64,000 nucleotides of DNA from Escherichia phage ECO4: sequence record NC_054911.1; one strand, written 5' to 3'. Both the position numbers and the translations under genes were made by a program. The notes under the pieces were generated by a model, which ran no database searches, was not told the origin of the DNA, and saw nothing but the letters and a program-made list of their open reading frames with translations. This document shows, piece after piece, positions 1 to 26,715 of the stretch; positions within the stretch are counted from its first letter, which is position 1; each line of letters begins with the position of its first letter.

Positions 1-1
1 A

Positions 2-1450
2 CAAGGAAAAGCTGTTTGGTCTTTAGGTACTGAAATTAATTCCGGGACTTTTGTTTTGCATCATTACAAAGAAGACGGGACCCAAGGTCATACATCAAGA
101 TTTAATGCTGATGGTACAGTCAATTTCCCGGATAACGTACAGGTCGGTGGTGGTGAAGCTACTATTGCCCGAAATGGTAATATCTTCTCTGATATTTGGA
201 AAACATTTACTTCGGCAGGCGATATAACTAACATTCGTGATGCGATAGCTACCCGTGTTTCTAAAGAAGGCGACACGATGACAGGCCGCTTAACTCTTAA
301 AACCAACTCGGATGCTGTTGTTATTGATTATCCAGCAGATGAAGCGGGCTATGTTAAGGGTAAAAAAGGTGGCGCTGATAACTGGTATGTCGGTAATGGT
401 GGTGCTGATAATGGACTTGCCTTCTGGAGTTTCCAATCCCAAGGCGGTATTAATATCAACCCGAACGGTGAAGTTATTCTATCTCCACAGGGCACTAGTA
501 TATTCAATATAAACCGTGACCGAATTCATATGAACGGTGCTCACTGGGTTGCGCGTAAATCTGGTGCGTGGGGCGACCAATGGGGCTTAGAAGCACCTTA
601 TTTCCTTGATTTTGGTAGCGTTGGCGAAGATAGTTATTATCCTATTATTAAAGGCCGTTCTGTAATTACTGGTCAAGGATATACTACTTCTGTTGACCTT
701 GGTATTAGACGTACACCACAAGCCTGGGGACAAGCGATAATTCGAGTAGGTAATGCCGAGCGTGGCGACGGGCCTGTGGGTGTTTTCGAATTCCACTCTA
801 GCGGTTTATTTTACGCCCCGTCTTTAGTCCAGACTCCTGCCATTGGTGTTGGTACTGTTAACGGATTAGGCTCTCCTAGTATTGCTATCGGTGATAATGA
901 CACAGGATTATCACACGGCGGTGATGGCCGAATCAATATGGTTGCCGATGGTATGCATATTGCATCTTGGTCTGGCTCTTACCATATCCATGAAGGTCTT
1001 TGGGATACCACTGGTGCCTTGTGGACTGAAACAGGAAGAGCTATTATTTCTTTTGGTCATTTAGTCCAACAACACGATGGCTATTCAACATTTGTTCGTG
1101 ACGTTTATGTTCGTTCTGATATTCGTGTTAAAAAAGACCTTGTTAAATTTGAAAATGCTTCACAAACACTTTCAAAAATTAACGGTTACACTTATATGCA
1201 GAAACGTGGCCTGGATGAAGAAGGTAATCAGAAATGGGAACCTAATGCTGGTTTAATTGCTCAAGAAGTTCAAGCTATTTTGCCTGAATTAGTTGAAGGT
1301 GACCCTGATGGCGAAGCTTTACTTCGTTTGAACTATAACGGTGTAATTGGTTTAAATACAGCTGCAATCAATGAGCATACTGCAGAAATTGCAGAACTTA
1401 AATCAGAAATCGAAGAACTTAAAGCATTAGTTAAATCATTGTTAAAATAA
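2..1450 (+). CDS. 37: Long tail fibre distal subunit gp37, 3' partial (reading frame open to window start; listed ORF begins at TTG 56)
   Basis: Frame is open from position 2; C-terminal sequence and position immediately upstream of gene 38 and holin t; ends ...[14 protein letters not shown]. Confidence 0.8.
1115..1447 (+). other. Intramolecular chaperone / auto-processing (peptidase S74-like) domain at gp37 C-terminus
   Basis: Motif [10 protein letters not shown] followed by about 110 aa ending in a coiled coil, as in auto-cleaving tail fibre and tailspike chaperone domains. Confidence 0.55.
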
Positions 1451-1452
1451 TA

Positions 1453-1476
1453 AGAGGGGCTTCGGCCCCTTGGAGG
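1453..1476 (+). other. GC hairpin (GAGGGGC-TTCG-GCCCCTT) between genes 37 and 38, directly abutting the gene 38 SD
   Basis: Perfect stem with UUCG loop; no T-run follows, so probably an RNA stability or processing element rather than a terminator. Confidence 0.4.
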
Positions 1477-1481
1477 TTTAT

Positions 1482-2258
1482 ATGGCAGTAGCAGGACCGT
1501 GGATAGGAATTTCTGCATTGGCACAGACTGGAGACCATTGGATGGCAGGAGCAGCCGCAAGATTAAGATTGGGTGTTCCTTGCTGGATGAGTCAATTTGC
1601 AGGTCGCTCACGAGAAATTATTCACACGCTTGGAGCAGACCATAACTTCAATGGTCAATGGTTCCGAGATAGATGTTTTGAGGCAGGTAGTGCACCTATA
1701 GTGTTTAATATTACAGGTGATTTAGTATCATATTCTAAAGATGTTCCTTTATTCTTCATGTACGGAGATACACCAAATGAATATGTTCAGTTAAATATAC
1801 ATGGCGTAACGATGTATGGACGTGGCGGTAATGGTGGTAGCAATAGTCCTGGCTCAGCTGGAGGTCATTGTATTCAAAACGATATTGGTGGGAGACTAAG
1901 AATTAATAATGGTGGAGCTATTGCTGGCGGTGGCGGTGGCGGTGGCGGCGGATATTATTCTCCTTTTTCACAAATGAGATTAACCTTTGGCGGTGGTGGT
2001 GGGCGTCCGTTTGGTGCACCTGGCGGATCTATTGATATGCAATCAGGCGCAACTGCTGGTACTATTTCTGCACCTGGCTCAGGATCCGTGAATGGTATCT
2101 ATAATGGTGGAAACGGTGGTGAAGTAGGTTCCGCGGGAGGTAGATGCAATATTCGCGGTCAAGGATCTGAATATAATGGCGGCGCTGCGGGTTATGCTGT
2201 CATAGGGTCTGCTCCAACGTGGCAAAATGTTGGAGCAATATATGGTCCAAGAGTATAA
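1482..2258 (+). CDS. 38: Tail fibre adhesin gp38 (T2-type, glycine-rich motifs)
   Basis: SD GGAGG 5 nt before ATG 1482; poly-Gly tracts (GGGGGGGGGG, GGGGG) between conserved segments; directly downstream of gene 37. Confidence 0.8.
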
Positions 2259-2288
2259 TGTGAATAAATACCCTTAAAAGGAGGGTCT

Positions 2289-2945
2289 ATGACAGCACCT
2301 AGAATATCATTTTCGCCCTCTGATATTCTGTTTGGTGTTCTAGATCGCTTGTTCAAAGATAACGCTACCGGGAAGGTTCTTGCTTCCCGAGTAGCTGTCG
2401 TAATTCTTTTATTTATGATGGCGATTGTTTGGTATAGGGGAGATAGTTTCTTTGAGTACTATAAGCAATCAAAGTATGAAACATACAGTGAAATTATTGA
2501 AAAGGAAAGAAATGCACGCTTTGAATCTGTCGCCCTGGAACAACTCCAGATAGTTCATATATCATCTGAGGCAGACTTTAGTGCGGTGTATTCTTTCCGC
2601 CCTAAAAACTTAAACTATTTTGTTGATATTATAGCATATGAAGGAAAATTACCTTCAACAATAAGTGAAAAATCACTTGGAGGATATCCTGTTGATAAAA
2701 CTATGGATGAATATACAGTTCATTTAAATGGACGTCATTATTATTCCGACTCAAAATTTGCTTTTTTACCAACTAAAAAGCCTACTCCCGAAATAAACTA
2801 CATGTACAGTTGTCCATATTTTAATTTGGATAATATCTATGCTGGAACGATAACCATGTACTGGTATAGAAATGATCATATAAGTAATGACCGCCTTGAA
2901 TCAATATGTGCTCAGGCGGCCAGAATATTAGGAAGGGCTAAATAA
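2289..2945 (+). CDS. t: Holin T
   Basis: 218 aa; sequence MTAPRISFSPSDILFGVLDRLFKDNATGKV... matches T4 holin; SD GGAGGG upstream. Confidence 0.95.
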   Translation: MTAPRISFSPSDILFGVLDRLFKDNATGKVLASRVAVVILLFMMAIVWYRGDSFFEYYKQSKYETYSEIIEKERNARFESVALEQLQIVHISSEADFSAVYSFRPKNLNYFVDIIAYEGKLPSTISEKSLGGYPVDKTMDEYTVHLNGRHYYSDSKFAFLPTKKPTPEINYMYSCPYFNLDNIYAGTITMYWYRNDHISNDRLESICAQAARILGRAK

Positions 2946-3218
2946 TTATTTGTTCGTATACATTTCTAGATATCGATATACACCCTCAAAACCCTCGTTG
3001 AATTCATCGATGAGGGTTTTCTTATCTTCTTGAGTTAATTCAGAAACAATTTTACGAAATGAATTCTGATTTAACTTTCTACCTTCATGCGTTACTCCAA
3101 TCTCATTAAGAAATGCAATAAAATTAGCACGATTCTCAACAATATCTTCTCTGGAAAATTTAATCAAAATAGATGCAACAGTAATAATTTCACGAACTGT
3201 ATCAATGTTTTTATTCAT
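2946..3218 (-). CDS. asiA: Anti-sigma-70 factor AsiA
   Basis: 90 aa, MNKNIDTVREIITVASILIKFSRED... matches T4 AsiA. Confidence 0.95.
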   Translation of the reverse strand: MNKNIDTVREIITVASILIKFSREDIVENRANFIAFLNEIGVTHEGRKLNQNSFRKIVSELTQEDKKTLIDEFNEGFEGVYRYLEMYTNK

Positions 3219-26633: not shown

Positions 26634-26715
26634 GTAATTCTCCTTTTATTTAAATTACATGATTATTTATAATAATTCTCGCGGCTTTTAAGTCGTCGTT
26701 TAAATAAACGAGCTA

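Follow-up and report, generated by a model that had tools for sequence, protein, structure and literature searches.

In the T-even phages T2 and T6, the distal fibre subunit gp37 is reported to be cleaved, and the gp38 cap is added afterwards (PMC3157838). The chaperone domain of S16 gp37 is reported to be lost through autoproteolysis (PMC7289586), and the role of Trp prongs in the attachment of gp38 has been described for the same phage (PMC6851490). Tsx is the receptor of T6-like adhesins (PMC3157838, PMC12032242). Their host range is altered by changes in HVS2 and HVS3, where a few residue changes redirect the adhesin towards OmpA or Yersinia receptors (PMC3157838).

Here we analyzed a 64,000-nucleotide stretch of Escherichia phage ECO4 (NC_054911.1; hereafter the window), which opens on the genes for these two proteins. 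The locus is the long-tail-fibre tip of a Tequatrovirus, and the tip is of the already known, ordinary T2/T6-like kind. Briefly, a C-terminal chaperone domain of the Peptidase_S74 (S74) type would be cut off gp37, a gp38 cap would set the host range, and the glycine core of gp38 would be rigid. The identities of the domains, the aligned motifs, the fold, the conserved lengths and the T6-type loops are observed here, and cleavage, capping and receptor are inferred; we give this account as a whole a probability of about 0.92. The features are collected in Table 1.

Table 1 Features of the fibre-tip locus in the window, with the evidence for each.
Feature	Position	Strand	Evidence or variation
Gene 37, 3' part (long tail fibre distal subunit)	2..1450	+	ORF, Pfam, annotated relatives
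Intramolecular chaperone domain (Peptidase_S74), gp37 C-terminus	1115..1447	+	Pfam PF13884, profile matches
SDIRVK: putative nucleophile Ser (1115-1117) and general-base Lys (1130-1132), spacing +5	1115..1132	+	Alignment
Heptad-repeat (coiled-coil-like) tail of the chaperone domain, with 21-nt tandem duplication	1383..1446	+	Tandem Repeats Finder, translation
C(UUCG)G hairpin between genes 37 and 38, GAGGGGC-UUCG-GCCCCUU	1454..1471	+	RNA fold
Gene 38, T2/T6-type receptor-recognising adhesin, 258 aa	1482..2258	+	Pfam, PDB, AF2
gp38 N-terminal attachment domain for the gp37 tip; Trp prongs W7, W20, W35	1482..1601	+	Gp38_N, alignment
Variable segment 1 (SNSPGS)	1839..1856	+	6-11 residues, 29 versions
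Poly-Gly tract G149-G157, codons (GGC GGT)x3 GGC GGC GGA	1926..1952	+	Translation, 6f45_D alignment
Variable segment 2, 12 residues, T6-like	1953..1988	+	7-15 residues, 48 versions
Second long glycine motif GGGGGRPFG (G170-G178), with (GGT)3 codon run	1989..2015	+	Alignment
Variable segment 3, 14 residues	2028..2069	+	11-17 residues, 45 versions
Variable segment 4 (VNGIYN)	2088..2105	+	2-10 residues, 42 versions
Variable segment 5, 12 residues	2142..2177	+	9-14 residues, 47 versions

Organization of the locus

Genes 37 and 38 are followed by the holin gene t (2289-2945) and then by asiA on the minus strand, an order that agrees with that of relatives. Directly upstream of gene 38, gene 37 ends in its S74 domain. 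The tandem stops TAATAA (1448-1453) precede the intergenic hairpin, and the Shine-Dalgarno sequence of gene 38, GGAGG (1472-1476), adjoins its 3' end. Placed behind GGAGG, the start of gene 38 is the ATG at 1482, not the mechanically listed TTG at 1470. The hairpin region (1436-1495) folds with -17.8 kcal/mol (z -2.0). A role as intrinsic terminator of rightward transcription was rejected, as no T-run follows the hairpin on the plus strand. No exact late-promoter box TATAAATA was found near genes 37 and 38, and Rfam and tRNA scans over the whole window found nothing. Three minus-strand ORFs (1333-1611, 2079-2225 and 2192-2356) are without support.

The C-terminal chaperone domain of gp37

The gene 37 ORF is truncated by the 5' end of the window, leaving 482 visible codons, and is annotated in relatives as the long tail fiber distal subunit. 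Pfam gave a weak match to gp37_trimer and a clear one to Peptidase_S74 (PF13884; E 3.8e-12, 46.7 bits with the cut-off at 22), the latter far above chance. Profile positions 1-57 of 58 correspond to ORF residues 372-431, and the match begins at the Ser of SDIRVK. The domain, the last 111 residues (12.3 kDa), lies at the extreme C-terminus of the fibre protein, and its length falls within the family's range of about 110-135 residues. In a PDB sequence search, the C-terminal 133 residues of gp37 matched S16 gp37 (6F45_A) with E 4e-36. Profile matches include the MYRF ICA (7dc3), a tail fibre (8jov), the GA-1 CIMCD (3gud) and a T5-like fibre (8hqz); the GA-1 and T5-like entries were reached by a broader profile to which the S16, MYRF and 8jov sequences had been added, and the matches of these three with that profile arise by construction. 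K1F (3GW6) and T5 (4UW8) are absent from the PDB matches of the single-sequence and profile searches with the gp37 tail.

The earlier note had read an SDIRVKKDL-type intramolecular chaperone signature at the gp37 C-terminus, and the Pfam match bears this out, the motif lying at 1115-1141 and in frame with the ORF ending at 1450. The Ser/Lys dyad, whose absence from an alignment that note had named as a refutation, was found by alignment as well. SDIRVK aligns with SDRRIK of S16, SDERHK of GA-1, SDERLK of 8jov and ADLRAK of the MYRF chain 7dc3, in which Ala stands where the others have Ser. In the released GA-1 domain (the 3gud chain), SDERHK begins at residue 1, and the Ser1264/Lys1269 pair of T5 pb1 has the same spacing as the pair in SDIRVK (PMC4690869). 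The D, R and K of the motif are invariant in both gp37 chaperone types. Five to six residues upstream of the predicted cut lies an R-D pair (VRDVYVR|S here, CRDLNVS|S in S16), a possible counterpart of the folding-sensor Arg and Asp that the adjacent subunit contributes in the K1F/T5 mechanism (Arg1250/Asp1239 in T5); to judge the equivalence would take a trimer structure. The profile matches and the aligned Ser/Lys pair support an S74-type auto-processing chaperone domain with a putative catalytic Ser/Lys pair at the gp37 C-terminus. The tail of the domain, in which Tandem Repeats Finder detected 2.0 copies of period 21 at 1383-1423, probably forms a coiled coil, as judged from its heptads and the S74 structures in PMC4690869.

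The gp37 domain shares the S-D-x-R-x-K start, the G-[LIVF]-IAQE core and the helical tail with K1F endosialidase, T5 pb1, the GA-1/phi29 appendages and the MYRF ICA. It differs from these systems in its client, the tip of a T-even gp37 fibre, for which cleavage and later capping by a separate adhesin are predicted. In the proposed mechanism, the domain would aid the folding of the gp37 trimer. With the trimer properly formed, the Lys at +5 would activate the SDIRVK Ser, which would sever the chain directly on its own N-terminal side and so set the 12-kDa domain free. By analogy, release directly before this Ser is most likely, and the domain is most likely discarded after helping assembly and sets no specificity, since relatives lack it in their mature fibres (PMC3157838, PMC7289586). 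Hence the suggestion that the gp37 chaperone and gp38 jointly determine host specificity holds for gp38, given its adhesin family and the work on relatives (PMC3157838, PMC12032242), and is not supported for the chaperone domain.

Identity and fold of gp38

The 258-residue product of gene 38 shows 100% identity to gp38 as annotated in ECO4 (ASZ77105.1). It matches Pfam GP38 (PF05268; E 3e-72, 243 bits) and Gp38_N (PF21721; E 5e-18, 65 bits), each against a cut-off of 25, and its PDB sequence matches are 9v85 (E 4e-79) and 6f45_D (E 1.5e-50). We compared it with gp38 of T6, M1, Ac3, wV7, JSE, RB14, S16 and PP01, and a related-locus search with the non-repetitive N-terminal half of the gp38 alignment gave 14 loci. 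The AF2 model (pLDDT 87.5) superimposes on 9v85_C with a target-normalised TM score of 0.88 (rmsd 2.1 Å, E 2e-26) and on 6f45_D with TM 0.72-0.74 (E 4.5e-23) in Foldseek, and fits a three-domain fold of helical attachment domain, beta-helix and polyglycine-II sandwich. The best structural match is thus the receptor-binding domain of PP01 gp38 (9V85; 67% identity); the PP01 loops bind O157 OmpC (PMC12892980), whereas the loops here are of T6 type. The S16 tip (6F45) shares the S74 domain, with 57% identity between the gp37 chaperones, as well as the three-domain plan and the Trp prongs of gp38. Its gp38 is 43% identical over the structural alignment and its loops differ from those here, because S16 binds Salmonella OmpC.

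The Gp38_N match spans residues 1-40. W7, W20 and W35 align with Trp residues of S16 gp38; W7 is invariant and W20 nearly invariant among 110 sequences, and W35 is nearly invariant among 10. A single gp38 monomer would cap the bared gp37 tip via this helical domain and its three Trp prongs. The family matches and the modelled fold, together with published work (PMC3157838, PMC12032242), support gp38 as the glycine-rich adhesin that determines host range. By analogy with S16, T2, T6 and the FL phages (PMC6851490, PMC3157838, PMC12032242), we infer a monomer on the virion fibre tip that would bind an outer-membrane protein.

The homologues in T6, wV7 and JSE are named 'distal long tail fiber assembly catalyst', a label that would make gp38 an assembly chaperone of the T4 type acting outside the virion. 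We regard this as having almost no chance of being right and rejected it on family and fold: gp38 matches GP38, Gp38_N and the solved S16 and PP01 adhesins, T4 gp38 is described as unrelated in sequence (PMC3157838, PMC6851490), and gp37 has a chaperone domain of its own.

The glycine core

The glycine run G149-G157 of gp38 is encoded largely by a regular repeat. Tandem Repeats Finder detected a perfect (TGGCGG)x4 at 1925-1948 (score 48), and the 24-mer GGTGGCGGTGGCGGTGGCGGCGGA quoted by the earlier note sits at 1929-1952, so that the description of a glycine-rich adhesin with a GGY repeat stands. When nine Gly codons were drawn at random from the codon usage of the gene, a 24-nt window of period 6 or 3 appeared in about 0.4% of trials. 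Such a (GGY)n tract could be a contingency-type repeat, in which slippage alters the Gly-codon count at a rate sufficient to drive host-range variation. Apart from the perfect hexamer repeat itself, a few length changes point this way. Among close relatives, length differences outside the N-terminus were found solely in Gly-codon runs: D5505 is one GGT short in the (GGT)3 run of the second glycine motif, and Yersinia phage PYps32T has three additional codons in the poly-Gly tract. Shorter runs of six and four Gly occur in the cluster representatives P0069 and P0115, respectively.

The bulk of the comparison argues against such a repeat. The poly-Gly tract keeps its length in 108 of 110 homologue clusters and its span in 38 of 39 sampled close relatives, and the length is identical in 58 of the 60 best tblastn matches when an N-terminal 2-aa indel is set aside. 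A copy number that differs between close genomes, by which a contingency locus is recognised, was not found for the Gly repeat beyond the in-frame indels of D5505 and PYps32T. Relatives do not keep the repeat register; their Gly codons differ synonymously at constant count, and the longest G homopolymer in gene 38 is 3. The tract aligns with G151-G158 of S16 gp38 (6f45_D), with nine Gly here and eight in S16, and this stretch is helix 3 of the S16 gp38 structure, where it forms the central polyglycine-II helix in a hydrogen-bonded lattice (PMC6851490). G150-G156 are at least 90% conserved among 110 sequences, and the tract has a pLDDT of 92-97 in the AF2 model. The second glycine motif behaves alike: G170-G174 are invariant (110 sequences), and the 13-residue segment at this place has a single length in 110/110. 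In T6, deletion of individual glycine motifs or hypervariable segments abolishes adhesin function (PMC3157838), and published host-range changes are located in the hypervariable loops. Frequent slippage as a driver of host range is thus very improbable, and the proposal that the repeat is prone to length variation finds largely no support, the loops varying instead.

The alignment with S16 helix 3, the conserved length and the synonymous codon changes indicate that the Gly run is largely a fixed structural element rather than a variable repeat. In the structural reading that we prefer, the C-terminal half of gp38 would be a polyglycine-II sandwich, with the glycine motifs, including the nine-Gly run, as its rigid core. 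A weaker form of slippage, rare and in frame, might be a minor but real source of new receptor-loop geometry, as the runs of PYps32T, P0069 and P0115 hint; we hold this unlikely too, if slightly less so than the frequent form. If true, a change of three residues in either direction would correspond to one polyglycine-II turn, making the adjoining loop longer or shorter with the lattice intact, and may aid host shifts, for example to Yersinia.

Mosaic structure and possible recombination

The gp38 proteins of T6 (about 90%) and of RB14 and T4_ev151 (93-96%) are close to that of ECO4, and the T6-like group (RB14, RB5, PST, FL23/FL44, ECO4) has the same glycine motifs, nearly the same loops and the same 37-38-t order. 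The first ~30 residues here nevertheless belong to another lineage than those of T6/RB14 (MAVVGVPGW...), and gp38 has 258 residues compared with 260-261. This N-terminus accompanies a gp37 chaperone of the type SDIRVK...KSLLK, whereas T6/RB14 have SDSRLK...KYFKF. Sliding identity places the mosaic junction at about 1550-1600, inside the N-terminal attachment domain.

It has been proposed by Tetart et al. (as cited in PMC3157838 and PMC12032242) that glycine-motif DNA provides homology patches for the recombination of divergent gene 38 alleles. This might be the main role of the DNA, shuffling the loops in addition to the structural role of the motifs. The clearly mosaic 37-38 locus is in keeping with the idea, and the database ORF P0068 changes from gp38 to a gp37-like tip with S74 domain exactly within the poly-Gly run. 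The one mappable junction here, however, lies in the attachment domain and not in a glycine motif, and P0068, which stands alone and comes from a draft assembly, is possibly an artefact. We therefore consider such a main role possible but doubtful.

Variable segments and receptor

In gp38, glycine motifs of fixed length (one length in 108-110 of 110 homologues) alternate with segments of variable length. The boundaries of the five segments are our own, and the versions and lengths in Table 1 were counted among the 110 homologues. The segments between the glycine motifs would form the distal receptor-binding loops. Residues 113-258 differ from T6 at 5 positions, and variable segment 2 at one residue. 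Since the loops are of T6 type, the receptor is most likely the nucleoside channel Tsx, a prediction only, given the receptor shifts that a few changes in HVS2 and HVS3 cause in T6-like adhesins (PMC3157838). FL23 and FL44, which fall into the 90% cluster of this gp38, both require tsx experimentally. Against Tsx, fPS-65, with a gp38 94.6% identical, yielded LPS-core mutants only on Yersinia.

Implications

The value of the locus is mostly one of annotation: it shows that the host-range protein is gp38, acting through its loops, which are probably directed at Tsx. The poly-Gly run is better handled as structural and fixed than as a tunable repeat. For host-range engineering, the variable segments are the parts to swap or mutate, while the glycine motifs are to be left intact and the first ~30 residues chosen to fit the gp37 tip.

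Organization of the host-recognition locus

The left end of the window is a standard T2/T6-type host-recognition module, whose parts are already described in the literature and have solved structures in close relatives; the earlier note had correctly recognized it as a gp37 chaperone domain coupled to a gp38 adhesin. Three successive plus-strand ORFs occupy positions 1-3000, followed on the minus strand, downstream of the holin ORF, by asiA and, farther along, gene 52. Comparison with relatives showed that this order matches that of annotated T-even genomes, and many Tequatrovirus genomes share the window's core replication genes at ~97% identity. Every residue of the 258-aa gp38 is that of the annotated Escherichia phage ECO4 gp38 (ASZ77105.1 / YP_010068215.1), and the best phage-collection matches to gene 38 are 89-96% identical over the locus. 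The hairpin between genes 37 and 38 lacks a T-run on the plus strand; on the minus strand its score is that of a terminator-like element. A scan of the whole 64 kb returned neither tRNA genes nor Rfam families above threshold.

Features of the gene 37-gene 38-holin locus and other sites in the window
Feature	Position	Strand	Description
Gene 37 ORF	enters at left edge, ends 1450	+	Pfam: gp37-type fibre ending in Peptidase_S74
SDIRVKKDL motif	1115-1141	+	encoded in gene 37 frame
Tandem duplication	1383-1423		21 nt; encodes two heptads of the chaperone domain's helical tail, AEIAELK and SEIEELK
Tandem stops	1448-1453	+	TAATAA, end of gene 37
Hairpin	1454-1471		C(UUCG)G tetraloop, GAGGGGC-UUCG-GCCCCUU, between TAATAA and the gene 38 Shine-Dalgarno
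Gene 38 ORF	1482-2258	+	Pfam GP38 (E 3e-72) and Gp38_N (E 5e-18)
(TGGCGG)x4	1925-1948		perfect repeat (Tandem Repeats Finder)
Glycine codons G149-G157	1926-1952	+	GGC GGT GGC GGT GGC GGT GGC GGC GGA
T holin ORF	2289-2945	+	Pfam T holin (E 2e-117)
T4 late-promoter box TATAAATA	26664-26671	-	sole occurrence in whole window; 10.4 expected from shuffles

The gp37 C-terminus carries a chaperone domain with a Ser/Lys dyad

The Pfam Peptidase_S74 match on gp37 (E 3.8e-12; score 46.7 bits, cut-off 22) begins exactly at the Ser of SDIRVKKDL, and a search with the final 133 residues finds the C-terminal end of gp37 from Salmonella phage S16 (6F45_A, E 4e-36). Searching with a profile of gp37 tails from related loci retrieves the intramolecular chaperone domain of MYRF (7dc3, E 1.4e-9) along with 8jov, a tail fibre (E 8e-7). 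A broader profile retrieves 3gud, the released chaperone domain from the neck appendage of GA-1 (E 1e-5), as well as 8hqz, an L-shaped fibre of T5-like type (E 6e-6). In all alignments made, the Ser of SDIRVK is domain residue 1 and a Lys follows at +5, and therefore the S74-like dyad is present; the GA-1 chain likewise starts SDERHK at its residue 1, whereas Ala occupies the Ser column in MYRF (ADLRAK). The same spacing is found in T5 pb1, where Ser1264 is both scissile and catalytic, is activated by Lys1269, and the cut falls before the Ser (PMC4690869). The S16 fibre is reported as one of those that lose the chaperone domain by autoproteolysis (PMC7289586). By analogy, gp37 would cleave itself before the Ser of SDIRVK, and the computed fragment would be 111 residues (12.3 kDa).

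Two gp37 chaperone types adjoin gp38 genes, SDIRVK...KSLLK and SDSRLK...KYFKF, and both keep the motif's D, R, and K without exception. At one related locus (L012 102-2405, IMGVR_UViG_2974741249_000001), the gene 37 ORF upstream of gp38 stops early (...NFISTRCCDVQ) and lacks the SDxRxK motif, which may reflect a frameshift or a truncated gp37. No support was found for a role of the chaperone domain itself in host specificity.

Fold, probable docking, and predicted receptor of gp38

By sequence, gp38 matches the receptor-binding domain of PP01 gp38 (9v85, E 4e-79) and S16 gp38 (6f45_D, E 1.5e-50). An AlphaFold2 model with 110 homologues as input (mean pLDDT 87.5) superimposes on 9v85 with a target-normalised TM of 0.88 (rmsd 2.1 Å) and on 6f45_D with a TM of 0.72-0.74; a PDB structure search with the model gave no scoring match beyond these two. 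Three Trp prongs fix S16 gp38 to gp37 (PMC6851490), and W7, W20, and W35 occupy the aligned positions in ECO4 gp38. Glycine makes up 24% of gp38 overall and 36% of residues 113-240.

Across the specificity domain (residues 113-258), T6 gp38 differs from that of ECO4 at five positions, and Tsx is the receptor of T6-like adhesins (PMC3157838). The gp38 proteins of phages FL23 and FL44, whose infectivity is lost on tsx deletion, fall in the same 90% cluster as that of ECO4. Tsx is therefore the best prediction for the ECO4 receptor, to be taken with caution, as a few changes in hypervariable segments HVS2 and HVS3 are known to move T6-like adhesins towards OmpA or Yersinia.

A mosaic junction in the attachment domain

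[quoted passage not shown] One lineage thus accounts for the gp37 chaperone domain together with the opening ~30 codons of gene 38, and a T6-like lineage for the rest of gene 38. In the loci examined, two gp38 N-termini pair with two gp37 tail types, which fits a report that PP01 gp38 is compatible with T2 gp37 only if its N-terminus is matched (PMC12892980). Glycine motifs have been proposed in the literature as recombination hot spots; the sole junction mappable at the ECO4 locus is not at a glycine motif.

A 303-aa ORF (P0068; L019 4001-4912, GCA_031535085.1, contig ABMKHH010000064.1) consists of gp38 residues 1-155, breaks within the poly-Gly run, and continues as a gp37-like tip that has an S74 domain of its own. 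Downstream, small unknown ORFs take the place of the holin. The ORF represents a genuine recombinant adhesin or else an artefact of assembly.

The poly-Gly run is constant in length

The two sequence observations of the earlier note, the SDIRVKKDL motif and the glycine-codon repeat, are accurate to a base or two, with the quoted 24-mer at 1929-1952, but its emphasis on a slippage-prone repeat is not borne out. An alignment of the query and 109 full-length cluster representatives was split into glycine motifs and intervening segments. The ten-column segment with the run has a single length in 108 of the 110 sequences, as do the remaining glycine motifs in 109-110; the intervening segments occur in 29-48 distinct versions each, with lengths of 6-11, 7-15, 11-17, 2-10, and 9-14 residues. 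Among evenly spaced megablast matches to 1860-2040, the span exactly equals the query length in 38 of 39 full-length matches. The relatives keep the codon count and interchange GGC, GGT, and GGA, and therefore the hexamer register of the ECO4 run is not conserved.

The two residues separating the 258-aa ECO4 gp38 from the 260 aa of its commonest close relatives are an N-terminal gap outside the run (MAVAG--PW versus MAVVGVPGW). This one aside, length differences among close relatives were found only in Gly-codon runs. Escherichia phage D5505 (L017, MK327929, 601-1380) has one GGT fewer in the (GGT)3 run at window 1989-2003, changing GGGGGRPF to GGGGRPF; Yersinia phage PYps32T (L018, MT515753, 601-1392) carries three additional in-frame codons in the long run; and the run is shorter in two cluster representatives of metagenomic origin. 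Slippage-type events in the Gly runs of gene 38 are rare but evidently occur, and isolates that carry them can still form plaques; slippage is an improbable route to host-range change.

The run aligns with G151-G158 of S16 gp38, in helix 3, described as the central polyglycine-II helix, whose backbone hydrogen-bond network is saturated (PMC6851490), and the model has a pLDDT of 92-97 in the run against 76 in the loop after it. Deletion analysis of T6 gp38 found individual glycine motifs and hypervariable segments essential for adhesin function (PMC3157838). From the constant run length, the variable loops, the alignment with helix 3, and the T6 deletions, we conclude that strong selection keeps the Gly run at a constant length and that the variation that matters is in the loops.
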